From positions 1 to 64,000 of IMG/VR virus record IMGVR_UViG_3300045988_151684: 64,000 nt of DNA; one strand, 5' to 3'. Within the stretch, counting starts at the first letter, position 1. The number at the start of each line of letters is the position of its first letter. Positions 8,259 to 62,173 of the stretch are shown in pieces. A model generated the notes under the pieces. It was given only the letters and a program-made list of their open reading frames with translations, was not told where the DNA came from and made no database searches. This DNA is from a virus. The position numbers and the translations under genes are program-made.

Positions 8259-8264
8259 TAGCGG

Positions 8265-15652: not shown

Positions 15653-16051
15653 ATGTTTACCTATATCGATTTGATCGGCGTGCCATATCAGGATGGTGGC
15701 CGTGATGAAAAAGGAATGGACTGTTGGGGACTGGCAAGGGAGCTGTTTCGGCGGCAGGGGTATACCTTGCCGCTTTATCCGATTGATCCGCGGGATCCAA
15801 AGAAAGTGGATGCGACAGCGCACCGCGTTCTCTCGGCGTGGTGGAAACTATCCGTACCCACTGTTGGATGTTTGGTTCTGCTGAAGCTCTCTACAGGATT
15901 ATGGGCCAATCATGTAGGCATTTATATTGGCAGCGGACGGTTTATTCATGCCTATAGCGGTGCCGGTGTATGTATAGATCGTCTGCGTCGATGGCAGTCA
16001 AGAATTGCTGGCTATTATATGCCGGGAGGTAGAAATGGTACAGATAATTGA
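15653..16051 (+). CDS. tail tip NlpC/P60 family protein (lambda gpK-like)
   Basis: GMDCWGL ... NHVGIYIGSGRFIHA catalytic Cys/His motifs. Confidence 0.75.
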   Translation: MFTYIDLIGVPYQDGGRDEKGMDCWGLARELFRRQGYTLPLYPIDPRDPKKVDATAHRVLSAWWKLSVPTVGCLVLLKLSTGLWANHVGIYIGSGRFIHAYSGAGVCIDRLRRWQSRIAGYYMPGGRNGTDN

Positions 16052-19000
16052 GATACAGAACCCTTTTGAGCCAGAAAAGTGTGAGTATAAGGACCTGTAT
16101 TGTACGGGCGGCAGATTGCCGGAATACATTGCCGTTGAGGGGCGGGATGTTTATATTGACGGAAAGTGCGTGGAACAGCCGGAGAAGGTCACGCCGACTG
16201 ACGAGATGCAGATTCTCGTCACTCCACATATTGCAGGACATGGTCTAAAGCGCATCCTCGGCTTTGCAGCTATGATTGCACTGTCCGTCTATTCCGCCAA
16301 CATCGCGGGCGGCTTGTGGGCCAAAGCCGGAAGCTTTTTCGCCAAGGGGGCGATTGGTTCCGTTCTGGCATCCGGGGCAGTGATGTTCCTCGGCGGTAAA
16401 GTCATCAATGCGATATTCCCTCAGCAGTCGCCGTCTCTGAGCTGGAATGACCGCCAGTCATCGCAGACCTACGGCTGGGACCTGCCAACGCCAACTACGG
16501 TGGCAGGCAATATCATCGGCGAGACATACGGCGAATGTATTCCGGCCCCGCAGCTTTTAGAGCAGCATGTCGAGACGGTCAATGATAAGCAGTATCTGAA
16601 TCTGCTCTACTGCGGCGGCTACGGCCAGGTCGATGAGATCAAGGACATCCGCATCGACTACACCGATATATCGAATTTCAACGAAGTACAGATTGAAACG
16701 CGCCTCGGCACGAACGACCAGAAGCCGATATCGTTCTTCAAGAACACTCCGCTTGACCAGTCGGTCGGCATCGAGCTCTTGAAGGATTCGGTGATTTCCC
16801 GCACGTCAGACAGTACAAAGGCAACTGCGCTGGACGTAACGCTGGAATGGCCGGCAGGACTCTATCATATGAACGATAACGGTTCTTATGGCAATGCGAC
16901 GGTGAAGTTAAGGATAGAATACCGTCTGCGCGGTGAGACTAATTGGAATAATTTCCACCGCAATAGCGACGACTATGTATACGAAGTGACCGGAGCCACG
17001 AATGAAGCCCTTCGGCGTACTTTCAGCGTTACCGGGCTCACGGCCGGTCAGTACGAGGTGCGGGTGTCGATGGTAGACAAGCCCTCTACCTCGCGCTATC
17101 AGAGTATGACACAGTGGTCGATACTGACGTCTTACGTTGACGGCATTTACTGCCGGCCGGGCAAGGTACTCGTAGCGCTGCGCATCAAAGCCAGCAATCA
17201 GCTATCAGGCGGTGTTCCGTCGCTGAACTGGCGGCAGGTACGCAAGACGGTATGGGTACACAACCCGGAAACGGATACCTACGAAGAAAAGCCGGCAGAC
17301 AATCCGATATGGGCCACCTACGATATCCTGCACGGCTGCAGACGGCTGAAAAATGTCCATACTGGCGCATATGAATTTACAGTGGCAGGCTATCCGGCCG
17401 ACTGCTTAGATGCGTATTACGAGCAATGGACGGAAGCGGCTGCTTATGCAGATGAAGAGATCACCAATCAGGACGGAGAAAAAGAACCGCGCTTCCGGTT
17501 TGATGCGTTCTATGATACTAGTCAGAAACGCTGGAACGCGGCACAGAAGGCCGCGAATGTCGGTCACGCGGCCATTATCCCGCATGGGCGCAACATCGGC
17601 ATTGTCGTGGATAAGCCGGGGCAGATCACACAGGTATTCGGCGAGGGCCGTACCACGGTTTCCTCGGTCAAGGGTTCCTTCTCGGCGACTGCTGACCGCG
17701 CCAAGGCGATAGAGATCACCTATAACGATAGCCAGAACGATTTCAAAAACACCGTCATGACAGTACGGTCACCAAACTACAATACCGACCACGCGAGCGA
17801 CAACACGTCCCAGATGACGCTGTTCGGCGTGAAGCGGCGGTCACAGGCGTACCGTGAGGCTATTACGGCTCTTGCGACAAACGAGAGACAGCTGCAGTTT
17901 ATCGAGCTGTCGGCGGATATCGATGCCATCGTGGCGGAGTACGGAGATATTGTCGGCTATAACCACACGGTAAGCCGGATCGGCATAGCGTCGGGGCGCA
18001 TCAGGGCGGCGACAGAAACCACGGTTAGGCTGGATAAGGCCGTGACCATGGTTGATGGCAAAGACTATGAAATTTATATCACGCTTTCAGATGATACGGT
18101 GGTAAAGCGTCAGGTAGTAGCAAAAGCCGGGACTGTCGATACTATTACGGTGTCAGTGCCATTTGACGAAGTGCCGCAGACGTTTGACACCTACGCATTC
18201 GGCGAGACGGATAAGGCAGTAAAGCCGTTCCGCATCGTCAATGCGAGCCGCGACGGCGATATGTTGGTCAGCCTGAAGCTGGCCGAGTATGACGAGGCAA
18301 TGTATTCAACAGAACTGGACTACAGCCGCTATCCGGTTATCGATTACAGCAATTCGCCGACAGCGGCGACGGTCAAGGCTGTCACGGCCAAAGAGCAGAG
18401 CTATCTCAATGGCCGCTCGTCCGTGTCGGACCTCCTTGTGAACTGGACGCTTTCAGGCGGCACGCCGCCGGATAGCTATACTGTCGATTGTATCAGCCGG
18501 GACTCGGCGTTTACCCAGACGATCAATACGCGTATGACCTCTTGTCTTTTCCACGCTGTAAAGCCCGGCGAAACGTATGACATTATCGTGCACAGTGTCC
18601 TGGACGCAGTGACAATCGGGAACACGGCAACCTATATCCATGTTGCCGGTCATGCGGTTCCGGGGGAGAATGTTTCCCATCTTACCGCAATGCCGGTTGT
18701 CGGAGGACTGCGGCTCACATGGTCGCCGACCGGCGAGTACGGGGCAGTTGGATACAATGTGTATCGCGGCGCCAAAGGCGCGGACCTGTCAAAGTGCGAG
18801 CTCATTGCGAAAGGGATTACCGGCATGGTACTGGATGATCCACGAGATAGTGTTGGAGAATGGCAGTATTACGTCAGCGCGGTAAGCAGCAGCGGGGCAC
18901 TGATGGGAAACGCTGTCACGACACTCGGTCAGATAACAGCGCCGGGTGCGGTCAAAGGGGCCACAGCGCGAAGCATCTATCGCCGCTATAATGATGGCTC

Positions 19001-21329
19001 GGCAGGATACGATATTGTCGTTGAGTACGCTTTGCCGCAGGATGACGTTACAACATCTGCAATCTGTTATTATAAGACCAATGCAGTCAGTATGACGGAG
19101 ATCGGCACGATTCCCGAGGGATTGGCGGGCGATGAGACCGGCTATGGGGCAGATTGGCGGATTGCTGGCGAAAGCGCCGATCGGACGGTTATTTCCGGCG
19201 GGCAGATTGGCGATACGTATAAGCTGAAATTAGTATCAAAGTCAAAATATGGTTATGCATCGCCAAACCCAGTGAATATCTCTATCACAGTAGAACCGCG
19301 CACCGAAGTGCCGAATACGCCACAGAATTTCAGCTATGATTTCAGTCTGTCAGGCGGCTTCAGGTTCGCCTGGGATGATGTCGCAAACGCGGATGTGGAC
19401 TTCTATGAGCTGCGTTATGACCAAACTCCAGGAGCGACTGCCGGCCTGATTGCCCGTGTGCAGGGAGCAGGCGCGATGATAAGCACACTCAGCCGCCGCA
19501 ACGCTACGGTGTACCTTTATGCACATAACAGTGCGAAGCTGTATAGCTACCCGGCATTACTGAGCTATGATTTACCCAAGCCAGATGCCCCAAAATCAAT
19601 AACCTTTGCCAGTATTCCCCGCGGCGTTCGGATAACATGCCCGTCTTTTACCTCACCAATTCAATGTATTCGCCTTTATATTACAGGGGAATCTTCATCG
19701 GATGTTATTGATACAAACAATTCATCTTATGCTTACTATGGCAGTCCGGGGATTTACTCTGTCCGTGCAACGTACATTGATCTGATTGGCGAGGGATATT
19801 CTTCGACAGAATACATGGCAACGATTGAAGCGACCTTTGATCCAGCATGGATTAGCGAAGAATCCATTGGATTGAAAAATATCGATGATACCTTGAAAAG
19901 CGCCCTTAAAGATGCTCAGACAGCCATTTCTGGTATTAACGAGGAAATTACTGGATTGAAACAAACTGATTCCGAGTTATCCAATGTCATAAAACAGACA
20001 AAGACGGATATGGAATCGGACATATCCAAGGCAGACCAAAAGGCAGATAGCATTAGTACCACCGTACAGAATCAGAAAAAAGAAATAGATGGGACGATAA
20101 GCGGATTATCCAGTAGAATCTGTCAAAATGCAAATAGTATCACCAATATTGTTACAGAGCTTGGAAAATCCCCGGATAAAAGCAGTTATTCGGCGATAAC
20201 TCAGCTTCTCAATGGAATCAATCTGCGCGTCAAGAAAGAAGAGATTATCAACCAAATCAATATGACTCCATCTGGAACAACTATTGATGGTAAATATTTA
20301 CATATCACAGGAACAACAAAAATTGATAACGATGTGATTGTTGGCGGCATGATAAAAGCCGGGGCAGTGACGGCGGATAAACTGAGCGCTGGGACAATAT
20401 CATTAAGCAATAACCAAGGTATTCAAGGTGGGAATGTTATACTGAGTACCAATGGAATGACTTGTACCGACTCTAATGGGACTACCATTCAATTTGGACA
20501 GGATGGCATGGTATCTAAGGACAAAAATGGCAACAGCTTTGCAATCCTTTCTCAATGTATGATGGGCGTAGCAAAAAACGGTAAATATATAAAATTTAAT
20601 AATCCGTGGACGGAAACGCCTGTTGTCATCATTACGCCTCAAAATGTACAGACAAATAATCCTGCATACTCCACATCGCAAGTAAGATTGCATTGCTATG
20701 CAGAGGATGTATCTGTCAATGGCTTTCGCGTGAGGGCATATAGCGGTATTGCAAATGGTTCTGGCTCATTTGCGCAGTATCAAGAGTGTGGCTCAATGAG
20801 CTGGACAATTTGGAGAGATAACGGGGCTGCCGGCAATATGCGACTACCATATGGCAGTCGCTCTATTACCTTTACTGTAAAAATGCCAAGTAATGCAAGC
20901 CGTGTTGTTTTCCATGGTAGATTCGGGATGCATCTCAATTATAAGTATAGGAATTTTGTTAGATTTCCAAATAGCGCATCTCAGAATATATCTATAAGAT
21001 GCAATGGCAAAGAAACATACAATGGTATGTTTTTTTCTGGTGCTAATAATAACGAAATCCACGGGAGTACAGGCAATCATAACATTGACGAATACTGCTC
21101 ATATACATCAAATGCATTTACAGTCGCACAGGGGAGCGAATTAACATGTACATTAACACTTAACCCATGGACTGAGCATGACGGCGATGGTTCGGATGAT
21201 CTTAGAGTATGGCTCATTATTGATTCGCTTGACGTGTATGTTGACGGTGAACAGATACTTGATAATGACGGGACAGGCGCCTTCTTTGTCGTCAATAGTA
21301 GCAATGGATTGTATACAATTACAGATTGA
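16035..21329 (+). CDS. tail tip protein: gpI-like N-terminus fused to host specificity protein J-like body (FN3 repeats), AT-rich swapped C-terminal domain
   Basis: 1764 aa from ATG 16035 (RBS GGGAGG); hydrophobic I-like segment; long beta-rich body; GC falls sharply from ~19650 to end. Confidence 0.8.
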   Translation: MVQIIEIQNPFEPEKCEYKDLYCTGGRLPEYIAVEGRDVYIDGKCVEQPEKVTPTDEMQILVTPHIAGHGLKRILGFAAMIALSVYSANIAGGLWAKAGSFFAKGAIGSVLASGAVMFLGGKVINAIFPQQSPSLSWNDRQSSQTYGWDLPTPTTVAGNIIGETYGECIPAPQLLEQHVETVNDKQYLNLLYCGGYGQVDEIKDIRIDYTDISNFNEVQIETRLGTNDQKPISFFKNTPLDQSVGIELLKDSVISRTSDSTKATALDVTLEWPAGLYHMNDNGSYGNATVKLRIEYRLRGETNWNNFHRNSDDYVYEVTGATNEALRRTFSVTGLTAGQYEVRVSMVDKPSTSRYQSMTQWSILTSYVDGIYCRPGKVLVALRIKASNQLSGGVPSLNWRQVRKTVWVHNPETDTYEEKPADNPIWATYDILHGCRRLKNVHTGAYEFTVAGYPADCLDAYYEQWTEAAAYADEEITNQDGEKEPRFRFDAFYDTSQKRWNAAQKAANVGHAAIIPHGRNIGIVVDKPGQITQVFGEGRTTVSSVKGSFSATADRAKAIEITYNDSQNDFKNTVMTVRSPNYNTDHASDNTSQMTLFGVKRRSQAYREAITALATNERQLQFIELSADIDAIVAEYGDIVGYNHTVSRIGIASGRIRAATETTVRLDKAVTMVDGKDYEIYITLSDDTVVKRQVVAKAGTVDTITVSVPFDEVPQTFDTYAFGETDKAVKPFRIVNASRDGDMLVSLKLAEYDEAMYSTELDYSRYPVIDYSNSPTAATVKAVTAKEQSYLNGRSSVSDLLVNWTLSGGTPPDSYTVDCISRDSAFTQTINTRMTSCLFHAVKPGETYDIIVHSVLDAVTIGNTATYIHVAGHAVPGENVSHLTAMPVVGGLRLTWSPTGEYGAVGYNVYRGAKGADLSKCELIAKGITGMVLDDPRDSVGEWQYYVSAVSSSGALMGNAVTTLGQITAPGAVKGATARSIYRRYNDGSAGYDIVVEYALPQDDVTTSAICYYKTNAVSMTEIGTIPEGLAGDETGYGADWRIAGESADRTVISGGQIGDTYKLKLVSKSKYGYASPNPVNISITVEPRTEVPNTPQNFSYDFSLSGGFRFAWDDVANADVDFYELRYDQTPGATAGLIARVQGAGAMISTLSRRNATVYLYAHNSAKLYSYPALLSYDLPKPDAPKSITFASIPRGVRITCPSFTSPIQCIRLYITGESSSDVIDTNNSSYAYYGSPGIYSVRATYIDLIGEGYSSTEYMATIEATFDPAWISEESIGLKNIDDTLKSALKDAQTAISGINEEITGLKQTDSELSNVIKQTKTDMESDISKADQKADSISTTVQNQKKEIDGTISGLSSRICQNANSITNIVTELGKSPDKSSYSAITQLLNGINLRVKKEEIINQINMTPSGTTIDGKYLHITGTTKIDNDVIVGGMIKAGAVTADKLSAGTISLSNNQGIQGGNVILSTNGMTCTDSNGTTIQFGQDGMVSKDKNGNSFAILSQCMMGVAKNGKYIKFNNPWTETPVVIITPQNVQTNNPAYSTSQVRLHCYAEDVSVNGFRVRAYSGIANGSGSFAQYQECGSMSWTIWRDNGAAGNMRLPYGSRSITFTVKMPSNASRVVFHGRFGMHLNYKYRNFVRFPNSASQNISIRCNGKETYNGMFFSGANNNEIHGSTGNHNIDEYCSYTSNAFTVAQGSELTCTLTLNPWTEHDGDGSDDLRVWLIIDSLDVYVDGEQILDNDGTGAFFVVNSSNGLYTITD

Positions 21330-21345
21330 AGGTGAATAATACAAT

Positions 21346-23727
21346 ATGTTAAACGCAGGATTCCAATATTTAGAACAACGAGACGCAAATGACACCATCA
21401 CGAAAAACGGCGTAGTGAGCAAGAATAGCCCTTTTGCTACATCGGACAATAGTGGTATTTATGATGTAATCGCTGAGAATTTCCGGGCGATCAAGTATAT
21501 GCTTGACACAGTATCGTCAAGCAATGATTTGTCCTCTATTCGTGATGAAGTCAAAACGATGTATGACGATATGAGGACGAATGAGAAGTTTGGCAGTATC
21601 GAAGCGACGGAGCAAGCGGCGATAGCGAAGGAACAAGCGGCGATAGCCACTGAAAAGGCAAAGGAAGCCGCTGCATCGCTTACTTCCATTACGGACAGCA
21701 GCAAGGATATATCGGCGAATATCAAAACGATAAACGATAGTATTTCTGCTGTAAAGACATACCTTGATACGATCCAGTCGGTACAGAAAGATGTTGCCGA
21801 TAATGCTCAGGTAGCAGCCAATCAAAAAACGGCGGCAAAACAGGCGGCAGACGAGGCGGGTACATCGGAAACCAATGCCGCATCCAGTGCCGCATCCAGT
21901 GCTGCATCGGCAAGTGCGGCAAAGGACTCTGAGACAAATGCAAAGACCAGTGAAACGAATGCAAAGACCAGTGCATCCAGCGCGGCAAGCAGTGCAGAAT
22001 CCGCACAGAACGCAAAAGATTCAGCGGAATCTATTAAAGATACGGTCATGTCATTGAAAAGCGGTGCTGAGAAAGCCATATCGGACCATAACAACACAAT
22101 GACTGCGAATAGTGAGTCCATGCAGGAAACGTTGTCGTTGACGAATCAGGCATACAACAAGGCAAATGAATCTGCATCGACTGCGGAAATGTGGGCAGAG
22201 GGCGATGTTCCCTCTGAGAATGTCACCGGAGGCGATGGAGTTATTACGGTTATTGCGCATAAATCGTCCAAGGGATGGGCATCTGAATCGAAATCGAGTG
22301 CTGAATCAAGCGCTGCCTCTGCTGACAATGCCAGTAAGAGTGCATCGGATGCACATGAATATTTGGACACGGTTGCGACAAATGCAAGCAAGTCCGAGGC
22401 ATCGGCAACGGCAGCAAAACAGTCGGAGGAGAATGCACTTAGTCATGCCAATGGTGCAAAGACCAGCGAGTCTAATGCGAAAGCATCGGAAACCAATGCG
22501 TCTACCTATGCGAACATGGCAAAGGCATGGGCCATGTCAGGGGATTCCCCGGACGACGCATTTGACGCTGACGCTGATGGCGGAAAGACGATGAGTTCCA
22601 AAACATGGGCAATGAAAGCCAGGTCAAGCGCACAGTCGGCTTCGGACAATGCGAAGGAATCCAAGGAAAATGCCAATAACGTAGCTACTGCATTACAAAA
22701 TATGCAAGCGGTTCAGTCGAATATTCTGTCCATTCAAGAGCAAATCAAAAAGTTGGAAAAAGAAGCCAATAAATGTCTTTCCGATGCACAATCCATACGG
22801 GACAGTATTTCCAGTTCCGTGGTGTACAAGGGGGCTGTCGATACTTATGCCGCATTGCCTACGTTCAATAAGGTCGGCGATATGTACAACGTTGCCCATG
22901 CAGATTCTGACCATGGAATTAAAGCGGGAGACAATGTGATTTGGAATGGGACCGATTGGGATAATACTGGCGGCACAATAGACACATCAACTTTTGCTCA
23001 GATTGGTTCTGACGTATCGTTTGGTACAGTCACCGCAACAACATTTAAGGGGAAAGCGGATGCAGCCAAGTTTGCTGACAGTGCATCAAGTGTTGCGTGG
23101 AGCAATGTGACGGGAAAACCAACGTCAATGACGGCAAACGGCGGTAGTGCCGATACGGCAAAAGTTGCAGACAGTGCAAAGATATGTACCGGTAACAGTG
23201 CAAGTGCATCGAGCGTATCGTGGAGCGGGGTAACGGGCAAACCGTCAACGTTTGCGCCAAGTAGTCATACCCATGATTACTTACCCGCATCTGGTGGCAC
23301 GCAACGAGGCAACATTTACTTTTCTGAGATTGGTAATACGGCTAAAAGTGCCGGTATGACGTGGAAAGGCTCAACAGATGGCGCGGATATTTATTATCAG
23401 ACTACTGCTGCTGACCAAGGCAATCTCGTATTTAATCTCCGTGATGATGCCAATTGTTATCTCCGTATTGCATACAATGGCGATTTCAAGAGCTATTTCT
23501 CGCCGTCCGATGGTAATTTCCACGGGAATGTCAACGGAAAAGCGGATGCAGCCAAGGTTGCTGACAGTGCATCGAGTGTTCCGTGGAGCGGGGTGACGGG
23601 AAAACCATCGGCCTACAAGCCGGCGTCCCATTCTCATAGCTGGGACACGACAACGGGCAAGCCGGGTGGCATTGTCAAGGTTGCCGGATGGGATGGGTCG
23701 ACGCTGAGTCTTACGACCTGTACCTGA
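21346..23727 (+). CDS. tail fiber protein with Ala/Ser-rich coiled-coil region and C-terminal repeats
   Basis: low-complexity SETNAKT repeats; triplicated GKADAAK(F/V)ADSASSV.WS.VTGKP motif. Confidence 0.65.
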   Translation: MLNAGFQYLEQRDANDTITKNGVVSKNSPFATSDNSGIYDVIAENFRAIKYMLDTVSSSNDLSSIRDEVKTMYDDMRTNEKFGSIEATEQAAIAKEQAAIATEKAKEAAASLTSITDSSKDISANIKTINDSISAVKTYLDTIQSVQKDVADNAQVAANQKTAAKQAADEAGTSETNAASSAASSAASASAAKDSETNAKTSETNAKTSASSAASSAESAQNAKDSAESIKDTVMSLKSGAEKAISDHNNTMTANSESMQETLSLTNQAYNKANESASTAEMWAEGDVPSENVTGGDGVITVIAHKSSKGWASESKSSAESSAASADNASKSASDAHEYLDTVATNASKSEASATAAKQSEENALSHANGAKTSESNAKASETNASTYANMAKAWAMSGDSPDDAFDADADGGKTMSSKTWAMKARSSAQSASDNAKESKENANNVATALQNMQAVQSNILSIQEQIKKLEKEANKCLSDAQSIRDSISSSVVYKGAVDTYAALPTFNKVGDMYNVAHADSDHGIKAGDNVIWNGTDWDNTGGTIDTSTFAQIGSDVSFGTVTATTFKGKADAAKFADSASSVAWSNVTGKPTSMTANGGSADTAKVADSAKICTGNSASASSVSWSGVTGKPSTFAPSSHTHDYLPASGGTQRGNIYFSEIGNTAKSAGMTWKGSTDGADIYYQTTAADQGNLVFNLRDDANCYLRIAYNGDFKSYFSPSDGNFHGNVNGKADAAKVADSASSVPWSGVTGKPSAYKPASHSHSWDTTTGKPGGIVKVAGWDGSTLSLTTCT

Positions 23728-23764: not shown

Positions 23765-24310
23765 ATGGGAAATTTTTTGTACGGAGGGAAAAAACCTGCC
23801 TCCATAAAATACAACGGTGCAGCGGTACAAGTATTGAAATATAATGGCGTAATCGTATGGCAGGCAATGGACAGTTATGTGATTACCGGTAAGCTGATTG
23901 GCAAGGGGATAAGGCATAGCTGGGATTGCAACTGTGAAATTGACGATTGCCATAGCGAACAAAATTGTGATTGTAATTGCTCGAACAGTGCAGATGACTA
24001 TGAATATAGTTTGCAATTGACGTTCAGCGGAGTAAGCCGGTTTCCGATCAAGTATGTATCAAAATCCGGTGCGACGGTCAGTATTGAAAAATCTGCTGTT
24101 TCCGGCAGTGGCAGCACCTATACGTATACGTCGGGAACGTTTAACGTCAATCAGCCGTCTATGACTGGGAATTGCAGCGAAAGTTTTGATATGAACTCCG
24201 GAATCGAAGAATTGAAAAGCATTTATCCGGCGTCCGGTCTTAGTTCGTACAGCAGTATCGCTTCGATAAATATTACGGCTCAGAATAACGGCGTGTCGGA
24301 GTGCGTATAG
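23765..24310 (+). CDS. hypothetical protein with Cys-rich cluster (8 Cys in 26 aa: CNCEIDDCHSEQNCDCNCSNS)
   Basis: RBS GGAGGGG; immediately upstream of radical SAM gene. Confidence 0.45.
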   Translation: MGNFLYGGKKPASIKYNGAAVQVLKYNGVIVWQAMDSYVITGKLIGKGIRHSWDCNCEIDDCHSEQNCDCNCSNSADDYEYSLQLTFSGVSRFPIKYVSKSGATVSIEKSAVSGSGSTYTYTSGTFNVNQPSMTGNCSESFDMNSGIEELKSIYPASGLSSYSSIASINITAQNNGVSECV

Positions 24311-24364
24311 GAATCCAATAACTGCCAAGACTGTAATAATTAAACTAGTTGAGGATGTGGTGCC

Positions 24365-25387
24365 ATGTTATTTTCAATCTATCGAATTTTTCTGATGCTT
24401 GGGCCTGAATGCAACCTGCAATGTAAATATTGTTTGCAGCATGATATGGCTTCGACCAGCAGTAAACAGATTTCCCAAGAGGTAATCCATTGGATTAAGA
24501 CTCAGGTTCGAAGCCAATCGTCAAAGTTTACGATAACGTTTTATGGCGGAGAGCCTTTGATTTATTGGGATGCGATTCAGCAAACCATAAGAGAAATTGG
24601 AGATGTGGTATCTTTTTCCATCATAACGAATGGAAAATTGCTGGATGAAGAGAAAGTGAATTATCTAAACGATCACAATGTTCATGTTGCTGTATCTTGG
24701 GATGGTAAGAATGTAATGGAAACACGCGGTTATGATGTTTTGAAAAACAATCCGAATATTCCATACATAAACAATTTGAGTATATCAGCGGTTTCGTCCA
24801 AAGCAAACTATCCAAAGGATTTTCTCGATAGTTTAGAGCCGTTTATGCAGACGTATTATGAGATACATCATTCTTATCCGGGGCTTAATATCGACACCAT
24901 TATGGATTTTGGTCATTGTGCTGATTTGGCCGATATGGATTGTGATAAAATTTACCAGCAGATGCAGGAAATCGTTGCGACGGACAACAGGATTTATCAT
25001 CTTTTCAAGCGTGATTTGATTCGAAGGGCTACGCTGTATTTCCCGCACGATACCGATAGAGCTGCTTGTGGCAACGGTATAAGCGTATGGAATGTAGATA
25101 CGGATGGAAATATCTATCGCTGTCACAACTGCGGAGAAAAGATTGGTAGTATAGATGATGATCCGGTTAATGCTTTGATTCGGGCGGTAAGAAAAGACCC
25201 TACGGAAGAGAATTTCAAAATATGCAAGGAGTGTCCGGTGGTCAGCCTTTGCGGCGGAGGGTGTCCTTTGGTCAATCAGGCGGACAGGGAACGGTATTAC
25301 TGTAAGATCAAGCGATCATATTACCTTCCACTGATTGAGTATGCAAATCGGAAAAATGAGGCAGGAAAGGAGATCGTGATTCAATGA
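24365..25387 (+). CDS. radical SAM enzyme with C-terminal SPASM/twitch domain
   Basis: CNLQCKYC (CxxxCxxC) near N-terminus; GGEP motif; C-terminal CGNG...DG.IYRCHNC and CKECPVVSLCGGGCP cysteine clusters. Confidence 0.75.
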   Translation: MLFSIYRIFLMLGPECNLQCKYCLQHDMASTSSKQISQEVIHWIKTQVRSQSSKFTITFYGGEPLIYWDAIQQTIREIGDVVSFSIITNGKLLDEEKVNYLNDHNVHVAVSWDGKNVMETRGYDVLKNNPNIPYINNLSISAVSSKANYPKDFLDSLEPFMQTYYEIHHSYPGLNIDTIMDFGHCADLADMDCDKIYQQMQEIVATDNRIYHLFKRDLIRRATLYFPHDTDRAACGNGISVWNVDTDGNIYRCHNCGEKIGSIDDDPVNALIRAVRKDPTEENFKICKECPVVSLCGGGCPLVNQADRERYYCKIKRSYYLPLIEYANRKNEAGKEIVIQ

Positions 25388-26133
25388 ATTTTTTGGATGA
25401 ATTGGCAGATAAGATGCCTGAACATGACCGGTTACTCCTTGGCGGTATTGTCGGTTCCTTTACTTACAGATTGGGTGATACCTTGAGTGATACGGATATT
25501 CGCTATTATGTCATGCCGACGCTGGATGATTTACTTCGTAGCCGCAAACGCCGGAGGATATTTTTAGATGGGGAAAACGATGTCCAGGTTCATGACATCC
25601 GGCGCTTTCCTTATTTTTTGAATATGGGCGATTTGAATCAAATATCGGTTTTGTTTTCGCCTTTTTTGTATATCGGTGAATCTTATATTGGGTTATCCCA
25701 TCTGCTTTTGGAACGGCGTGAAGAGATTGCTGAGGCCGTTTCCTCCAATATTTACAGTTGGGGGAAATCTATGTTCGAAAAAAAGATGGGACAGCTGGAT
25801 AGCTTTAAATTGAATGAAATCGTATATCAGCGAAACGGATATAACACCAAGGCTGCAGCGCAGGCGATATATCATATTAAGATGATCGGGAAGTATCTGC
25901 ATAATCTGGAATATAACGTAGAAAAACCTTTGGAGAACGCATTGGACTGCAAGGATATTCGTGAAGATATTCTCGCGGTCAAGGACGGAAAATATACACG
26001 GGATGAGTTTTTGAACATAGCCGATGACGCTTTTTCGTTGTATGCCGTGATTGATCGGAACAGTTATTCTAATATGCCCGGATGGGTTGCCTCGGCAATC
26101 AATGATGAGATCAAAAAACATATTGGTGATTAA
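25384..26133 (+). CDS. Pol-beta superfamily nucleotidyltransferase (AbiEii/KNTase/MNT-like fold) with helical C-terminal domain
   Basis: ATGA overlap with upstream rSAM gene; GGIVGS-x11-SDTD matches GS...DxD NTase motif. Confidence 0.55.
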   Translation: MNFLDELADKMPEHDRLLLGGIVGSFTYRLGDTLSDTDIRYYVMPTLDDLLRSRKRRRIFLDGENDVQVHDIRRFPYFLNMGDLNQISVLFSPFLYIGESYIGLSHLLLERREEIAEAVSSNIYSWGKSMFEKKMGQLDSFKLNEIVYQRNGYNTKAAAQAIYHIKMIGKYLHNLEYNVEKPLENALDCKDIREDILAVKDGKYTRDEFLNIADDAFSLYAVIDRNSYSNMPGWVASAINDEIKKHIGD

Positions 26134-26290: not shown

Positions 26291-26524
26291 ATGACACTAA
26301 ATGACGCAGCTATGATCGTATCAATCGCAGCAGCGTGTGGAGGGGCGTTTTATAAGGCTTGTCTTGCGCCACTGCGGGAGAGTATCAATCGACTGAATAA
26401 ACTGATTGATGAGCAGTCGAAGATGATTTCCAGCGATCGGGTGAAGATTGCTGAGATTGAACAGTCGTGCCGGTCGGCGCACCATCGCATTGACCGGCTG
26501 GATAATTTGATGGATGGGAGATGA
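26291..26524 (+). CDS. XhlA-like lysis-associated membrane protein (N-terminal TM + coiled coil)
   Basis: 77 aa; homolog of prophage 2 33752..34018 (shared SAHHR.DRLD); precedes holin and amidase. Confidence 0.5.
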   Translation: MTLNDAAMIVSIAAACGGAFYKACLAPLRESINRLNKLIDEQSKMISSDRVKIAEIEQSCRSAHHRIDRLDNLMDGR

Positions 26525-26696
26525 TAAGGTGATAATCACGACGGATATGATTGTGGGAACGGGACTTGTCGTTGCTTTACTCGCCGCCATTTTTTGCGGC
26601 GGGAGTACGGAGCTTCAAACGACGCTCGGCAGTGGCCTGATCGGCTACCTTGGGCGGACGGCGATCGGGCACGGAGGAGGAGATACGCATGGATAA
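26514..26696 (+). CDS. holin (small 1-2 TM protein)
   Basis: TTD.I...GLVVAL block shared with prophage 2 holin 33568..33762; upstream of endolysin. Confidence 0.5.
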   Translation: MGDDKVIITTDMIVGTGLVVALLAAIFCGGSTELQTTLGSGLIGYLGRTAIGHGGGDTHG

Positions 26697-26859
26697 CCGC
26701 ATACCGACCTTGCAGTATACGCCTTTCGCGGATGCGTTTTGGAATTTCGCGTCCCTGGCAAAGCAGTATCATTTCTACGATGAGGAGGTGGCGCGGATGG
26801 AACAGGCCATGCTGGACATGAATCCCTTTCCGCGCCAGAGAAAGGATGATGTGAAATGA
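26689..26859 (+). CDS. small hypothetical protein in lysis cassette
   Basis: RBS GGAGGAGGAG; overlaps holin end and amidase start. Confidence 0.35.
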   Translation: MDNRIPTLQYTPFADAFWNFASLAKQYHFYDEEVARMEQAMLDMNPFPRQRKDDVK

Positions 26860-27422
26860 AAGTATTTATCAATCCAGGACATGACACGACATACGACAGC
26901 GGCGCGGTCAATCCGAATACGGGGCTGCGTGAGTGCGATGTGGCGGCAGAAGTCGGCGCACGGGTCGCGGCTTATCTTGAGGGAGCAGGTTGTGAGTGCC
27001 AGCTGATGCAGAGCGACAACCTCGCACCGACTGGCGCAGGCCGTTCTGAGTATGCCGACAGACAGGGCTTGACGGTCACGGAGACGGCTAATGAGTGGGG
27101 CGCAGATGTGTTTGTATCTATCCACTGTAATGCGTTCAACGAATCCGCGCACGGTACGGAGGTCGAATGTTACGGTGCAGGAGAGGGCGCACGGCTGGCT
27201 GGCAATATCCAGAAGCAGATTGTCGGGGCACTGGGCACTCTTGACCGTGGCGTGAAATCCATGCCGCATCTTCTCGTGCTCAAATATACGGACATGCCCG
27301 CGTGTCTTGTCGAGATGGCGTTCATCGATAACGACGATGACGCGGAACTGCTGGCAAATAAGCAGGACGATTTCGCTCGTGCAATCGCGCGCGGCGTTAC
27401 TGATTATGAGCAGTCTTTATAA
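26856..27422 (+). CDS. N-acetylmuramoyl-L-alanine amidase (Amidase_3) endolysin
   Basis: FINPGHD...SIHCNAF...MPACLVEMAFIDN signature. Confidence 0.85.
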   Translation: MKVFINPGHDTTYDSGAVNPNTGLRECDVAAEVGARVAAYLEGAGCECQLMQSDNLAPTGAGRSEYADRQGLTVTETANEWGADVFVSIHCNAFNESAHGTEVECYGAGEGARLAGNIQKQIVGALGTLDRGVKSMPHLLVLKYTDMPACLVEMAFIDNDDDAELLANKQDDFARAIARGVTDYEQSL

Positions 27423-27676: not shown

Positions 27677-28618
27677 ATGTGTACTGATAAAGTTAAGGTT
27701 AGAATAGCCTATGATGGCAACGCTCTTTCTGATGGCACCATGGATGTTAAAGACCTAGCCCCGGCGTTGATGGCCTATGCTAACTTTATTATTAGAGCAA
27801 ATCAAGTGATTGGTAATGAGGTACCAATCAATGTGAAGTTGAGAGCTGATGATGTACAAAAAGGTTCATTTGATTTAGTGTTGGAAGTAGTGCAGAGTCT
27901 TTTAGGACAGGCAAAAAGCCTGTTTAAGGTGGCTGAGAACACTGGCTTGAAAGATTTATCAGACCTTATTGGCATCGGAGAAACCATCGGCGGTACAATG
28001 ACAAGTATATTCGGGTTCTTATTGCTTGTGAAAAAACACGGAGGCATTTTAAAACAGAAGCCGATTGAAAGTGGCGTGCAAATTACATTCAAGGATTGTG
28101 TTATACAGAATGTGACAAACAATGTGTACAATGTGTATAAAGACTATGAATCACGAAAAAATTTAGAGGGCGTAGTTGAGCCGCTGAAACGAGATGGCAT
28201 TAGCAGCTTTCAGTATAGGGATGCAGAGAAACCTTCAAGTAAAGAGGCACTGCTAGTTATTAACAAGGATGATATACAGGCATTTGCTTCACCGGAAAAA
28301 GCAGAGGGCGAGCAGATTGTTAATGAAATTTCTGGCAGGATGGTTTTTCACATAGTCGGCATAGTATTTGATGAAAATCAAAAATGGCGATTCTCTGATG
28401 GAGAATCGACTTTTTGGGCAAAAATTGCAGATAACGATTTTTGGAGTTACGTTGAAGATGGTACATATGCATTTGCCAAAGGAGATCAGCTTGAGGTTGA
28501 GTATACGATTAGACAAACAGTACAAGCTGGTGGGAAATCAAACGTTGAGCGTGTCATAACAAAGGTTGTACGAAAAATTCCACGCCCAACCCAGATAAAA
28601 TTAGATTTTGAAAAATAA
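27677..28618 (+). CDS. stand-alone 313-aa hypothetical protein (AT-rich accessory gene, candidate defense/abortive infection)
   Basis: own promoter, strong RBS, downstream hairpin/T-run; GC much lower than prophage 1; no recognisable motif. Confidence 0.6.
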   Translation: MCTDKVKVRIAYDGNALSDGTMDVKDLAPALMAYANFIIRANQVIGNEVPINVKLRADDVQKGSFDLVLEVVQSLLGQAKSLFKVAENTGLKDLSDLIGIGETIGGTMTSIFGFLLLVKKHGGILKQKPIESGVQITFKDCVIQNVTNNVYNVYKDYESRKNLEGVVEPLKRDGISSFQYRDAEKPSSKEALLVINKDDIQAFASPEKAEGEQIVNEISGRMVFHIVGIVFDENQKWRFSDGESTFWAKIADNDFWSYVEDGTYAFAKGDQLEVEYTIRQTVQAGGKSNVERVITKVVRKIPRPTQIKLDFEK

Positions 28619-29464: not shown

Positions 29465-29518
29465 TGCATAAAAAAATAAGCCCTATACCAGCATTGTGCC
29501 AGTATAGGGCTTTTGTTA
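29465..29518. terminator. bidirectional Rho-independent terminator
   Basis: AAGCCCTATA...TATAGGGCTT stem flanked by A-run and T-run. Confidence 0.6.
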
Positions 29519-30325
29519 ATATCCTGTGAATGTATTGAATGACGTTGCTCTGTACCAATACAACGCCCACAAAACAAAGTCAACTATCATCACGAAAAAC
29601 AAAAACAGGTTTATTCCTGCTATGGTTGATAGCTGAGGTTCTTTTTTCTTGTCATTTATCTTTGATGACACCGCTAATGGCTTCATGTTCACTTTTGCTA
29701 TGAAATCCAGCAGTAAATTCAGTAAGTTGAAAAGCATCATTGCAATCAGGATAATCACAAACGTCAAGCGATATATGGAAACTTTGTCTATATTGTTCAA
29801 TATAGAGCTGGAAAACACCATACCCGCTACAAACGTAATAACTATGGATGAGAAAATGCCAAGGATTGTAATATAGTCCTTCTGCATATTAGCCGCCTTT
29901 TCGCTCAGTGACCTTATTTCCTCACCAGATTTGCGATTTTTATCCTCCATGCGCTGAGCTATCTCTTGTGTGTAGCTGATGCGAGATATTTCCAGGTTCA
30001 CATGGTCATAAAGCTTTTCAAGCTTGTCACACAGCTCTGATGTCACATGGCCACGTCCTTCATCCCGCCACTGCACGGCAGATTCATACAATATTTGGAT
30101 ATTCCCTTGTAATTTTGCCATATCCAAATCATTATCAGCATCGATTCGTGTTATGACCCCGAACATCCCAGAATACAGGTGCCGGAAATCATCCGCATAA
30201 ATATCCTGCAATATAAAAATGTACTGTTCAAGGTTCTTTTCTGTTACATTCGTGTCTAAGCGAGCCAGCTTTAGAAGAAATTCCTGCAGTGCCTGCTGTT
30301 TATCACGCACATTCATACTCTGCAA
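29516..30325 (-). CDS. putative membrane toxin (soluble N-domain + 3 C-terminal TM helices), partner of Panacea-like gene
   Basis: start overlaps upstream gene by 23 nt; predicted TM segments at the C-terminus. Confidence 0.5.
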   Translation of the reverse strand: MQSMNVRDKQQALQEFLLKLARLDTNVTEKNLEQYIFILQDIYADDFRHLYSGMFGVITRIDADNDLDMAKLQGNIQILYESAVQWRDEGRGHVTSELCDKLEKLYDHVNLEISRISYTQEIAQRMEDKNRKSGEEIRSLSEKAANMQKDYITILGIFSSIVITFVAGMVFSSSILNNIDKVSIYRLTFVIILIAMMLFNLLNLLLDFIAKVNMKPLAVSSKINDKKKEPQLSTIAGINLFLFFVMIVDFVLWALYWYRATSFNTFTGY

Positions 30326-30782
30326 TCACTTCCTTGGGTATAATCTGCATCTTGCCGGCACCGCCCTGATACACTAAATCCCACGGTTTCCCTTCGGCAT
30401 GTGTCTCCTGAACTAAGTCCCACGGTCTCTTGCTCAACTTGTCAGCTACTACCTGGTCGATAATTGCCTTTTCATCAGCAGAAAAAGCTTCTTTTGGCTC
30501 TTTGCGTTCATAAATCGCAGCTGCCCCATAACCGCAATACTCACGGTAAACGCTTCTGACAACAGGACCGAATTGCCACGCTTCTACCTCATCCATAAAC
30601 AAAGCTCGCTTTTGTTGTATCAGAAACGTAGCTTGAACATAGTATAGAATCTTTTGCAACTGCAAATTGCTGATAGCCTTGTTTTCCTTCGTGCACTTGC
30701 TGATAATGTATCTTGCTACGTCATTAGCCGTGTGCGTGCCTTCAAAATCATTATTTTTATCGCCTTTGAAGAAAAAAAACAT
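30303..30782 (-). CDS. Panacea (DUF4065, SocA-like) domain protein, putative antitoxin
   Basis: LQKILYYVQATFLIQ...L..DE.EAWQFGPVVRSVY resembles DUF4065 signature; likely start MFFFFKG at 30782 with RBS GAGGAG. Confidence 0.5.
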   Translation of the reverse strand: MFFFFKGDKNNDFEGTHTANDVARYIISKCTKENKAISNLQLQKILYYVQATFLIQQKRALFMDEVEAWQFGPVVRSVYREYCGYGAAAIYERKEPKEAFSADEKAIIDQVVADKLSKRPWDLVQETHAEGKPWDLVYQGGAGKMQIIPKEVIAEYECA

Positions 30783-30811
30783 GGTTTTCAGCTCCTCTCT
30801 ATTGAATTTTT

Positions 30812-30841
30812 TATTATAGCCATATGATATATGGTTACACA
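30812..30841 (-). promoter_or_regulatory. promoter (TTGTGT-18-TATAAT) with embedded palindrome CCATAT-n3-ATATGG (putative autoregulatory operator)
   Basis: palindrome at 30820..30834 lies in the spacer. Confidence 0.4.
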
Positions 30842-31082
30842 AAAAATTACTTTTGTCAAACCCTGCATATTTAACCTAATCCGCTAGAAGTCCTCCACCT
30901 CTTAGTTGGGGGATGAAGGCGGGCATGGTGAATATACATTTATACATTTGAACGGCAAAAATCCCCTGTTTGAGTGGCAAAAATATGGCACCTTTTTGCA
31001 GGCTGGGCCGGAGCCAAAACGCCGTATTTTTGCCGTTCCGCCGCATACAGATATGTTGCAAAACGGCGGCAACCATAATATA

Positions 31083-32794: not shown

Positions 32795-33409
32795 TCACTC
32801 ATCATAATAGATGCTTGCATCATAGCCAAAGCCAGCTAAATTGTCCGTGAACTGGTGCATCCGAATGATGTTATTCGGATATTCCTCTTTGAGATAATCC
32901 CGACAGGCCGTTTCGAACGTGTTGCCCTCACCATAATTTGCCACCCAGTATGGCACATAATCGGGCAGGTCTTCGATTCGGATGTGATGATCCCCTTCAG
33001 CGCTCAGCCAGTTCCAGCTGGCGTAGATTCCATTGTACTGATGGCCATAGTCTGTCAATCGATTGATGAACGCCCGGCAGCACTCGGTCACATCACCGTT
33101 AAGCATCCGTTTTGACTCTGCATCATACCAAATACCCAGCGACGGGGTTTCGCCCCTCAGATATTCCTTCAGCCATGCAGCCACCTGATCAGCCTCAGCC
33201 ACCGCCTCATCATAGGTGCAAGCGCGGGCAAAATAATAAACGCCAAATTGTAAACAATTTTCCACAGCCTTATTGATATGATCCACAAACATATCATCCA
33301 GGTGGGAATGTTCGCCAATCTTCAATATAACGCCCTCGATACCGGCATCTTTCACGGCCTGCCAGTCCACATTCTCCTGCCATGCAGAAATATCGATTAC
33401 CTTCATCAT
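32795..33409 (-). CDS. GH25 family lysozyme (muramidase) endolysin
   Basis: MMKVIDISAWQ..VDW...GIEGVILK...GVYYFA signature. Confidence 0.85.
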   Translation of the reverse strand: MMKVIDISAWQENVDWQAVKDAGIEGVILKIGEHSHLDDMFVDHINKAVENCLQFGVYYFARACTYDEAVAEADQVAAWLKEYLRGETPSLGIWYDAESKRMLNGDVTECCRAFINRLTDYGHQYNGIYASWNWLSAEGDHHIRIEDLPDYVPYWVANYGEGNTFETACRDYLKEEYPNNIIRMHQFTDNLAGFGYDASIYYDE

Positions 33410-34586: not shown

Positions 34587-35630
34587 TTAACCTCCAATAA
34601 AATTTATTTTAAATTCACTTTTTATAGGAACATATTTTTTATCTTTCTTAAAAATTATTTTCCCCGTATCAGCATCATAAGTAGCGGTCATTTCATCATA
34701 ATCATATCCGTTTTCATAAAGACATTTTCCGCTCAATGAATGTTCCAATTCTGCAATCATGTTAATTTTAAATTTTTTATAAAAATCATAACTATTCCAT
34801 TCATCTATATTACATGTACATACAATAGTTCGAGTAGCTGGTGTATAATCACTACCATATGTATATAATTCCATATTAATATCAATGGTTTCTTCTTTAT
34901 TAGCTGGCGCTGCTGATATTTGATTGTCTATTATTTTTTTTATTACCAATAAATCATTAAATGTTATTTTAATTTTTTTATAGTAGTATTCATTACACTC
35001 TAATTCTATATCATACCAAGTAGGCTTTATTACTATTGGAACAGTCCCATATGCATTTAGATTTTTTACGCTAGATGCTTCAAACATCATTTTACCGCCA
35101 TATTTTGTAGCCCAGTCTTTTACTGATAACATATTTAACGTCCAAGGAAATATTTGTGGCAAGCTGCGGCATCCGCTAAACATCAAATAAAAATTTTGAC
35201 ATTTTGATGTATCAAATTCAGATAATTTTTGTAATTTTTGACAATCATAAAACATCGCTTCTGCACTACCAAGCAAAGGTGTTTTTAAACCATTTATTGA
35301 AATCAGTTCCGTGCATCCATCAAAACAATGATTAGCACTAATAGCATTGCTTAAATCCAAATTATCTATATTCTTTAATGCTGAACATCCTTTAAACAAC
35401 TCATCAGCACATGTTAATTTAGAATAATCTATATCATACGGTATTTCTGTCATTGATTTATATGTATCTGGATATAAATCAATCATTCTATAGCCAGTTT
35501 TTTCAAGCAAATAACTTTTATTTGTTTGCGTTGTCTTTAACAATTCCTTGGTGTCTTGTGTTACTGATTTATTTAAAAATTTACTTTTAATATTATTAGC
35601 TTGACCATGGCTTAATATTTTATTTCCCAT
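34587..35630 (-). CDS. BspA-type leucine-rich-repeat (LRR_5) tail-associated protein
   Basis: repeats F.GC..L..I......N...MF..C..L. Confidence 0.5.
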   Translation of the reverse strand: MGNKILSHGQANNIKSKFLNKSVTQDTKELLKTTQTNKSYLLEKTGYRMIDLYPDTYKSMTEIPYDIDYSKLTCADELFKGCSALKNIDNLDLSNAISANHCFDGCTELISINGLKTPLLGSAEAMFYDCQKLQKLSEFDTSKCQNFYLMFSGCRSLPQIFPWTLNMLSVKDWATKYGGKMMFEASSVKNLNAYGTVPIVIKPTWYDIELECNEYYYKKIKITFNDLLVIKKIIDNQISAAPANKEETIDINMELYTYGSDYTPATRTIVCTCNIDEWNSYDFYKKFKINMIAELEHSLSGKCLYENGYDYDEMTATYDADTGKIIFKKDKKYVPIKSEFKINFIGG

Positions 35631-59803: not shown

Positions 59804-59829
59804 TATAAAACCTCCCTTATGCCTTATGT

Positions 59830-61151: not shown

Positions 61152-61169
61152 GTCTTTCTCCTTTTCTGA

Positions 61170-62010: not shown

Positions 62011-62173
62011 TAAGCCATTATGCAGCACCTCCTTCTGCTACTCTTTATTTTTTTTATTATTCTTTTATTATTGGTTCTTAAAACAATATGTTTAACAAGC
62101 CCAAACAGTCCCCCAGCGGGGAATAAAAAAGCAAGCTTGAAAAAAGCGCCAGGCAATAACTGGCGCGCTTTTC

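Follow-up and report, generated by a model that had tools for sequence, protein, structure and literature searches.

A radical SAM/SPASM enzyme and a nucleotidyltransferase linked to a Cys-rich small protein in phage tail modules: a candidate maturation cassette for a tail-accessory protein

Introduction

Cross-linking of proteins and peptides by radical SAM (rSAM) enzymes with a SPASM domain is known from several systems. The ranthipeptide maturases CteB and PapB act on Cys-rich substrates (SCIFF and freyrasin) that offer Asp, Asn, or Thr as acceptors and introduce several cross-links into each, and QhpD, another rSAM/SPASM enzyme, forms several Cys-to-Asp/Glu thioethers inside a protein subunit, QhpC, rather than in a secreted peptide. 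Thioethers of the PapB/QhpD type link Cys sulfur to Cbeta or Cgamma of an Asp, Glu, or Asn in the substrate. Among nucleotidyltransferases (NTases), MntA is a protein-AMPylating enzyme. RlaP proteins add one or two nucleoside monophosphates (NMPs) to RNA 3' ends (bioRxiv 10.64898/2025.12.29.696909). Here, we describe a three-gene cassette (the trio) in which an rSAM/SPASM enzyme is encoded beside a Pol-beta-fold NTase and a small Cys-rich protein, in the tail module of the first of two prophages (prophage 1) on a 64,000-nt stretch of IMG/VR record IMGVR_UViG_3300045988_151684 (the window, whose coordinates are used throughout). L-numbers below denote compared loci carrying related genes, and P-numbers denote related small proteins.

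Our analysis favours the reading that the trio is a cassette dedicated to maturing a tail-accessory protein of the phage, in which the rSAM enzyme would cross-link a Cys/Asp/Asn loop and the NTase would be an obligatory partner; we put its probability at roughly 55%. Neither the trio nor the Cys-repeat partners of related rSAM enzymes have a model in Pfam, NCBIfam (release June 2026), PHROG functional annotation, or PADLOC, and a full-text literature search found no account of an rSAM enzyme in a phage tail module. The original prediction for this locus, made from the sequence alone, had likewise remarked that the organisation was not a recognised one. What would be new here is the setting, virus structural proteins, and the partner, a Pol-beta NTase.

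Results and discussion

Conserved linkage of the three genes

The trio consists of the following genes:

23765..24310, + strand: gene 1, small protein, 181 amino acids (aa), from the list of open reading frames (ORFs)
24365..25387, + strand: gene 2, radical SAM/SPASM enzyme, 340 aa, without a RiPP recognition element (RRE); Pfam PF04055 and PF13353
25384..26133, + strand: gene 3, divergent Pol-beta-fold NTase, 249 aa, with a helical C-terminal domain

These ORFs of 181, 340, and 249 aa lie between tail fibre and lysis genes, just as first placed. A Shine-Dalgarno-like sequence precedes each of them, and the rSAM stop and NTase start overlap (ATGA), in agreement with the translational coupling originally proposed.

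A search for conservation of the rSAM-NTase pair, as the original prediction had suggested, recovered the trio from many independent loci in at least six unrelated phage backgrounds. These include siphoviruses (the window, L103, and L010/11), SU10-like podoviruses (L001-3, L102 (Selenomonas montiformis GCA_052064355.1)), and contigs of 168-334 kb (L004, L012-15) that look like jumbo phages, where the trio adjoins 800-aa fibre-like and DUF285 proteins. In the SU10-like phages it sits inside the structural module with structural-type genes on either side, which does not fit the earlier description of its position as a moron slot. Wherever an NTase gene had enough flanking DNA, the rSAM and the small protein were both present, and the small-protein family always adjoins the rSAM and the NTase. 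Moreover, where the rSAM is intact, the NTase, the small-protein family, and a distinctive rSAM C-terminal tail co-occur three-way. The association holds when gene order is shuffled (NTase-small-rSAM in L010/11) and when the gene 1 counterpart is part of a 449-aa fusion protein (L108). Chance does not account for this neighbourhood. When the region was searched at the nucleotide level against 50,697 GenBank phage records, nothing matched, and tblastn of the rSAM against the same records returned only 21-27% identical rSAMs (from Campylobacter, Ralstonia, and Achromobacter phages), indicating that no cultured phage among them carries this rSAM family.

The trio-bearing SU10-like phages also encode giant proteins of 4656-5184 aa (L102:17304-18582, L003:9632-10677), which combine SLT or glucosaminidase, Zeta-toxin, ParB-like, SNF2/ResIII helicase, and MuF domains and look like ejected internal virion proteins.

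The radical SAM/SPASM enzyme

Three features of gene 2 bear on its assignment:

24410..24433, + strand: CxxxCxxC motif, CNLQCKYC (C16-x3-C20-x2-C23), invariant in 33 homologues
25067..25303, + strand: SPASM domain with seven Cys (C235, C253, C287, C290, C296, C300, and C313), invariant in 33 homologues
25364..25384, + strand: C-terminal tail GKEIVIQ, from comparison of rSAM variants from loci with and without an NTase

The rSAM assignment made originally from CNLQCKYC, an instance of the CxxxCxxC signature whose cysteines ligate the SAM-binding [4Fe-4S] cluster, holds in a profile search: the Radical_SAM model PF04055 matches gene 2 at 3.4e-11 (44 bits, against a cut-off of 29.5), and PF13353 (Fer4_12) also scores above its cut-off. 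The C-terminal cysteines, which had been called SPASM-type, are spaced C235-x12-G248-x4-C253 / C287-x2-C290-x5-C296-x3-C300 / C313, with G248 invariant as well. This agrees with the pattern that defines the SPASM domain and its two auxiliary clusters (CX9-15GX4C ... CX2CX5CX3C ... C), and the SPASM model TIGR04085 matches the homologue in L008. On these motif and profile matches, gene 2 is a genuine radical SAM superfamily enzyme with a full SPASM domain.

Its place within the superfamily is less conventional. The best NCBIfam match was PapB (NF047865; 1.2e-33, 116.8 bits against a cut-off of 340); QhpD came third (1.2e-22, 80 bits against 453, covering the N-terminal half only), and anSME (TIGR03942) matched at 8e-20 (71.2 bits against 349). 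Further sub-threshold matches were to the nif11 maturase, the SCIFF maturase, the YhhB/FxsB cyclophane formers, and the CcpM maturase. The nearest PDB chains by sequence were CteB (5wgg, 2.8e-28) and anSME (4k37, 1.6e-18, nearly full length), and both alignments extend through the SPASM region. In the CteB alignment, nothing before CteB residue 96 is covered, which means that gene 2 has no leader-binding RRE domain; alignments with CteB, QhpD, nif11, and other maturases all begin at about residues 77-100 of those proteins. Accordingly, no N-terminal PqqD-like RRE (~80-100 aa) was found in gene 2, whose rSAM motif is reached by residue 16. Judged from these alignments, gene 2 is anSME-like and RRE-less by architecture, closest to thioether formers by sequence, and in no curated family.

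A viperin identity was considered and ruled out. The PADLOC pVip match (1e-14) and the NCBIfam viperin match (56.6 bits against a cut-off of 180) both cover residues 12-116 only, which is the generic rSAM core, whereas a true pVip would be matched over its full length, with the C-terminal nucleotide-binding extension of viperins included. Viperins have no SPASM domain, and gene 2 has one. An rSAM identical to gene 2 is labelled 'FibroRumin system peptide maturase' in a source database; for gut virome annotation, this means that at least one rSAM of this family now bears the name of a peptide maturase of an unrelated system.

The C-terminal tail of gene 2 separates the rSAMs of NTase loci from the others. 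The form G[KR][EI]I[IVHK]I ends 10 of 10 distinct intact rSAMs of NTase loci and none of ~40 variants from NTase-less loci; the degenerate rSAM ORF of L105/L106 is without it, though that locus has an NTase. We rejected the idea that the tail merely reflects the ribosome-binding site of the overlapping NTase gene as its sole cause, because L010 retains the tail with no NTase directly downstream. Restriction of the tail to NTase loci points to a physical complex.

The small Cys-rich protein

Gene 1 contains the following features:

23765..23869, + strand: N-terminal ~35-aa module MGNFLYGGK.P..I.YNG..V..LKYNG..VW, found as the same module on other small proteins
23927..23980, + strand: Cys/Asp/Asn-rich loop, the proposed modification site, with C55, C57, C62, C68, C70, and C72 (6 Cys in 18 aa)
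23996..24007, + strand: D78-Y79-E-Y81 motif directly after the loop, from alignments of 16 and 17 sequences

An exhaustive HMMER search of 1.84 billion representatives defined a family of 28 representatives at 50% identity, and the protein matched nothing in Pfam, NCBIfam, PHROG, or PADLOC. Its AlphaFold2 model is all-beta (predicted local distance difference test score, pLDDT, 78) and shows a long hairpin (strands 36-54 and 73-88) with the Cys-rich loop at its tip; no similar fold was found in PDB or BFVD. The loop was first reported as 8 Cys in 26 residues. It in fact holds 6 in 18 (residues 55-72); the count of 8 applies to the full-length protein. Prophage 1 encodes no other dense Cys cluster, and within gene 1 the loop is the most variable segment, with 56% identity among close homologues as opposed to 86-93% in the flanks.

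Across the family, Cys-rich segments occur at two sites, the hairpin loop and a variable C-terminal tail. In 30 homologues, C-x-C is the commonest Cys spacing of these cores, and the acceptor types D, N, E, and Q dominate the non-Cys residues (D 28%, N 15%, S 12%, G 9%, Q 8%, E 7%). The sulfatase motif C/S-x-P/A-x-R is missing from the loop, and neither CxPxR nor CxAxR occurs anywhere in the gene 1 protein. In the motif after the loop, the 16-sequence alignment has an invariant D78 and a nearly invariant Y79, and the 17-sequence alignment an invariant Y81 and a nearly invariant D78. The role of this motif may be purely structural, as the beginning of strand 73-88.

The N-terminal module is a probable virion-attachment adaptor. 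It also heads P0155, P0156, P0158, and P0167, whose C-terminal domains are unrelated and Cys-poor, and module-bearing proteins with other C-terminal domains fill the same slot in related phages, sometimes in tandem (L101, L102, L103). The core domain of gene 1 also recurs elsewhere, forming the C-terminus of the 449-aa P0154 and occurring duplicated and Cys-free in P0148. Gene position and the swappable N-terminal module are consistent with a tail-accessory protein.

Toxin-antitoxin genes (RelE/HTH_3 and RelB/YoeB pairs) lie on the opposite strand beside the small-protein slot in several of these phages (L001:6743-7045, L002:4683-5349, L101:5413-5932, L103:8718-9232), and such repeated insertions indicate that the slot is a recombination hot spot.

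The nucleotidyltransferase

The catalytic signature of gene 3 is as follows:

25453..25497, + strand: NTase catalytic motif G24-S25-x10-D36-T-D38, invariant in 13 homologues

The Pol-beta fold named originally is borne out by this motif together with D66 and D71, likewise invariant in the 13 homologues, whose identity goes as low as 35%. The helical half contains a further invariant motif, GYNTK/QAxY. The spacer, given earlier as x11, is x10. Gene 3 conforms to the superfamily pattern hG[GS]-x9-13-Dh[DE]h with a third downstream carboxylate. Since the catalytic residues are invariant, the enzyme is probably catalytically active.

Gene 3 had no Pfam match at E<=0.01, and phrog_388 ('nucleotidyltransferase') matched at 6.4e-10. 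The RlaP model PF10127 scored 15.3 bits (E 0.016), below its gathering cut-off of 23, and was weakly matched by 7 of 7 NTase relatives (best 5e-5). Hence, from its profile matches, gene 3 is a divergent Pol-beta NTase and a weak relative of RlaP/PF10127. The nearest PDB sequence was the antitoxin MntA (0.0045). No RNA ligase/RtcB, kinase, HEPN partner, or RNA repair gene was found near gene 3.

The family is very rare, with 8 clusters in a 5.8-billion-protein index. It was otherwise found in one genome (a Selenomonadales metagenome-assembled genome, 100% identity), three metagenome contigs, and four IMG/VR contigs; a search of IMG/VR with the NTase sequence alone found none, and the four came from an alignment-based scan. 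The nearest relatives in cultured phages are NTases of Herelleviridae (27-30% identity), which stand in a different context, among early/nucleotide-metabolism genes.

Variant loci

Two variants fit the enzyme-substrate picture. In L101, the same N-terminal module is joined to a Cys-poor domain and the next gene is not an rSAM (the contig ends ~680 bp later). In the rearranged trio of L105 (L105:5461-8621, = L106), a Cys-free, duplicated small protein of 299 aa has as neighbours an intact NTase and an rSAM that is split and degenerate. The rSAM there comprises a 107-aa N-terminal fragment with an intact CxxxCxxC and a 312-aa ORF without the motif that keeps the SPASM cysteines, and could be either a split enzyme or a decaying one. 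The same loci also encode a 61-aa mini-protein consisting of the N-terminal module and NDDCDDNDDCDDSCDGE.

The wider radical SAM family and its Cys-repeat neighbours

Homologues with 33-44% identity to gene 2 are numerous, with 725 members in one 90% cluster alone. Where their sources are named, these are Acidaminococcus fermentans, Phascolarctobacterium faecium, Dialister, Selenomonas, and Sporomusaceae, strictly anaerobic Negativicutes in every case. Such hosts suit an oxygen-sensitive enzyme, and those of close relatives (Selenomonas montiformis, A. fermentans, P. faecium, and Dialister) are cultured. At every locus whose gene context was inspected, rSAMs of the wider family, which have no NTase beside them, lie in phage tail or lysis-proximal modules.

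A same-strand neighbour with D/N/Q-Cys repeats was found within 2.5 kb in roughly 20 of 27 rSAM clusters (70% identity). Among these neighbours are proteins with (CQx)n runs, for instance CQTCQGCQSCQTCQGCQKC, baseplate-like and small proteins whose C-terminal tails read CNCDCNCNCSDDS(GGG), and, at a Sporomusaceae locus, one with a (DC)n tail. The type of repeat tracks the rSAM clade, with CxC loops in the trio clade and (CQx)n in the 33-36% clade. Such linkage, with repeat type following clade, is the pattern expected of a co-evolving enzyme and substrate. A tail-module rSAM with Cys-repeat partners is itself unusual.

The (CQx)n layout was seen in about 50 IMG/VR loci (L023-L063, L070-L075; for example L008:4513-5175, ~8150-8456 (an uncalled ORF), and 8459-8830). 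The rSAM in these loci has 33-36% identity, and its named relatives come from Acidaminococcus, Phascolarctobacterium, and Dialister. After it stand one or two proteins of ~120 aa that contain extended (Cys-Gln-x)n stretches, e.g., CQTCQGCQSCQTCQGCQKCQTCQGC, and in L008 three proteins terminate in CNCDCNCNCSDDS(GGG). No family in NCBIfam, Pfam, or PHROG was matched by any of the Cys-repeat proteins. A further rSAM/SPASM gene (320 aa), more divergent than the first, is found 2 kb downstream, translationally coupled to an unannotated 216-aa protein and preceded by a Hint-like 136-aa and an unannotated 276-aa protein (in L008, 8845-9255, 9249-10079, 10081-11043, and 11040-11690). This layout suggests a two-enzyme maturation pathway.

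Genomic context

The two prophages of the window are arranged tail to tail. Prophage 1 is on the + strand, starting with terminase at 3011, followed by portal and tape measure (10674-14690), and the trio is flanked by:

16005..21329, + strand: central tail fibre J-like protein, 1774 aa; phrog_31 at 4e-133
21346..23727, + strand: tail fibre protein, 793 aa; weak PHROG tail fibre matches
26291..27422, + strand: lysis cassette: small proteins of 77 and 60 aa, followed by an endolysin (Amidase_3 at 1.4e-36)

The 793-aa fibre gene stops 37 nt 5' of gene 1. Fibres hold the equivalent position upstream of the trio in L010 and L103, and in L010 the trio is likewise followed by lysis genes, in the same order as in the window. 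The original prediction had identified the lysis genes as XhlA, holin, and amidase: the amidase was recovered at the score listed, whereas the putative XhlA (26291-26524) had no Pfam match at E<=0.01, and a weak XhlA match was obtained for its L010 counterpart only. That prediction had also raised the possibility of ordinary tail-fibre assembly or chaperone genes. The tail-fibre neighbourhood is indeed conserved, but the genes themselves are not ordinary chaperones.

The lower guanine-plus-cytosine (GC) content first reported for the trio was observed (0.44, 0.41, and 0.41 for genes 1, 2, and 3, against 0.47-0.56 for most prophage-1 genes) but is not peculiar to it: the J-like tail gene falls just as low at its 3' end (~0.40), so the whole receptor-binding end is compositionally distinct. 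In a promoter/terminator scan, counts equalled the shuffled expectation, and nothing was found that separates the trio from the late operon.

Just 3' of the endolysin, a gene for a 313-aa protein (27677-28618, + strand; GC 0.39) matches PADLOC PDC-S42 (5e-66) and phrog_3243. It looks like a true moron-slot defence candidate, unrelated to the trio. Between the prophages, a SocA/Panacea-domain antitoxin-like gene (30303-30842, - strand, 2.9e-17) overlaps an unannotated 269-aa gene (29516-30325), and the two (29516-30842, - strand) are a probable toxin-antitoxin pair whose 269-aa member looks membrane-associated. Prophage 2 (- strand, 32795-55100) encodes a GH25 lysin (32795-33409), a DUF285 tail protein (34587-35630), and terminase (51326-53074), and its composition is very different (GC 0.29-0.36 versus ~0.49 for prophage 1). 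Beyond it, also on the - strand and within 58559-62270, a ParB_N-domain gene (58559-59833) and a REP_ORF2-G2P replication-protein gene (61170-62270) may represent the prophage 2 replication module or a separate small element.

Proposed maturation and alternative explanations

The idea that the Cys-rich protein is post-translationally modified, one of several offered in the original prediction, is strongly backed by comparative genomics and can be cast as a putative model. The gene 1 product would attach to the tail via its N-terminal module and display a hypervariable Cys/Asp/Asn loop at the tip of a beta-hairpin. The RRE-less rSAM/SPASM enzyme would modify this loop in the strictly anaerobic host cytoplasm, before virion assembly. 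The most probable chemistry would be several thioethers from Cys sulfur to Asp/Asn/Glu side-chain carbons, of the ranthionine or QhpC type, a preference that follows from the nearest relatives (CteB, PapB, QhpD, and the NxxC beta-thioether enzymes, which provide an analogue) and from the acceptor-rich composition of the cores. Such thioethers could act as redox-insensitive staples suited to a reducing, protease-rich gut habitat. The NTase would be an apparently active, obligatory partner specific to this substrate family; our best guess is that it transfers an NMP onto a hydroxyl of the same protein or helps the folded substrate dock to the rSAM via the rSAM tail, and its role is the weakest step of the model. 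Gene identities, motifs, conserved linkage, and tail-module location are direct observations. From these we infer that the gene 1 product is associated with virions and is the substrate, that the bonds are thioethers, and which reaction the NTase performs. A broader picture, in which phages of Negativicutes, strictly anaerobic diderm Firmicutes, place RiPP-type cross-links in virion tail proteins, within hypervariable Cys/Asp/Asn or (Cys-Gln-x)n segments, by means of their own leader-independent rSAM/SPASM enzymes and one clade needs an added NTase step, with the NTase held in a complex by the rSAM tail, is tentative and somewhat short of an even chance.

Several points weigh against a cassette that matures a tail-accessory protein. 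The arguments for virion association are gene position and the modular N-terminus; the gene 1 fold is without a recognisable relative, and model confidence is low in the Cys loop. For every thioether-maturase family, the rSAM scored far under the curated cut-off, so the type of reaction is not fixed by family match. Runs of CxC and CxxC resemble metal-binding motifs too, and the rSAM homologues of L006, L059, and L069 have no obvious Cys-rich neighbour. RlaP, the nearest characterised NTase family, targets RNA 3' ends and not proteins (bioRxiv 10.64898/2025.12.29.696909). Finally, the NTase persists beside the degenerate rSAM of L105/106, so its role may be separable from cross-linking.

Among the alternatives, the one we consider least unlikely, if still doubtful, is that the rSAM acts on the loop by another radical reaction, such as anSME-type formylglycine oxidation, Calpha-thioether (sactionine) formation, C-C/C-O cross-linking, or epimerisation. 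Family scores well under cut-off for several chemistries alike (anSME at 8e-20, YhhB/FxsB, nif11, CcpM) leave room for this, as do an RRE-less length and architecture closest to anSME. However, the loop does not contain the anSME target motif, the aromatics needed for cyclophanes are scarce in the Cys-rich cores, PapB and CteB, both thioether formers, give the best sequence matches, and acceptor-type D, N, E, and Q dominate the cores. It is improbable, to a greater degree, that the Cys segments are metal- or Fe-S-binding knots and that the rSAM and NTase target another tail protein, a small molecule, or a nucleic acid. CxC/CxxC runs with Asp do resemble metallothionein-like ligand sets, and three rSAM homologue clusters are without a Cys-rich neighbour. 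In addition, not all SPASM enzymes modify peptides, AhbD being an example (PMC10452713). Against such knots stand the linkage of Cys-repeat ORFs to the rSAM in about 20 of 27 clusters with repeat type tracking clade, the pairing of a degenerate rSAM with a Cys-free substrate, and the lack of any other candidate site among prophage-1 proteins.

We regard it as distinctly improbable that the cassette is a prophage-borne moron that is bacteriocin-like or makes a peptide synthesized by ribosomes and modified post-translationally (RiPP), for the benefit of the lysogen rather than a virion component. The tail-fibre/lysis junction it occupies in the window is a common moron position, its GC is lower, and the FibroRumin label on the identical rSAM would suit such a role. 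The 'precursor', however, is a 181-aa folded beta protein whose modular N-terminus is common to other tail-slot proteins, and no RRE, leader, protease, exporter, or immunity gene was found nearby. Nor does a moron explain the trio's place among structural genes in SU10-like phages and beside large fibre-like proteins in the jumbo-like contigs, or the absence of a promoter or terminator between it and the late operon in our scan. Least probable of all, and to our minds very improbable, is a defence or anti-defence function, a possibility raised in the original prediction, by way of viperin-like nucleotide chemistry or RlaP-type RNA repair and with the small protein an unrelated neighbour. In its favour are the PADLOC pVip match, the weak relationship of the NTase to RlaP, which tails damaged RNA, the location of related Herelleviridae NTases among nucleotide-metabolism genes, and the PDC-S42 gene 1.5 kb downstream. 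Yet the pVip match covers just the generic core of an enzyme that, unlike viperins, has a SPASM domain; no RNA ligase or kinase partner is present; and PDC-S42 was not found in the other trio loci. The small protein accompanies the pair in every case, even in shuffled order or as a fusion, and an RNA-repair role of the NTase is given low weight because of this strict linkage to the small protein and the rSAM.

Implications

If a maturation cassette is the right explanation, the trio would extend rSAM/SPASM cross-linking to virus particles, beyond secreted peptides and a few cellular enzymes. The broader picture of Negativicutes phages, if true, would provide the first case of radical SAM post-translational modification of a virus structural protein, together with a new rSAM-NTase pairing. 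The findings suggest that some phages chemically staple their own tail proteins, and thioethers could replace disulfides as redox-proof links on particles that have to survive in the reducing, protease-rich gut or rumen. For RiPP enzymology, this would be an RRE-less family that recognises folded proteins and offers compact, naturally diversified CxC and CQx motifs. Our analysis also flags an uncharacterised rSAM-NTase partnership.

Comparison with known systems

By sequence, gene 2 is most similar to the CteB/PapB maturases, with which it shares the rSAM core and the full two-cluster SPASM domain. It differs from them in having no N-terminal RRE and in its score, 117 bits where the cut-off is 340. 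In place of a leader-core peptide, the presumed substrate is a folded phage protein of 181 aa that has an internal loop or a C-terminal tail. A phage tail module surrounds gene 2, and an NTase accompanies it. For QhpD, only the N-terminal half aligns (80 bits against 453), and the context there is a periplasmic dehydrogenase operon (that of the quinohemoprotein amine dehydrogenase gamma-subunit) with no NTase and no phage association. The anSME enzymes resemble gene 2 in length (~340-370 aa), in being RRE-less, in having CxxxCxxC near the N-terminus, and in acting on a protein substrate; however, the sulfatase motif is missing from the gene 1 loop, the score is 71 bits against 349, and anSME yields formylglycine rather than cross-links.

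Gene 3 compares with RlaP and MntA in a similar manner. It shares with them hG[GS]-x10-DxD, a third Asp, and a helical C-terminal domain, and its length of 249 aa equals that of the PF10127 profile. Unlike these proteins, it falls below the Pfam gathering threshold and has no RNA ligase/RtcB or HEPN partner. Its partners are instead an rSAM, to which it is translationally coupled, and a tail-slot protein, to which its linkage is strict.

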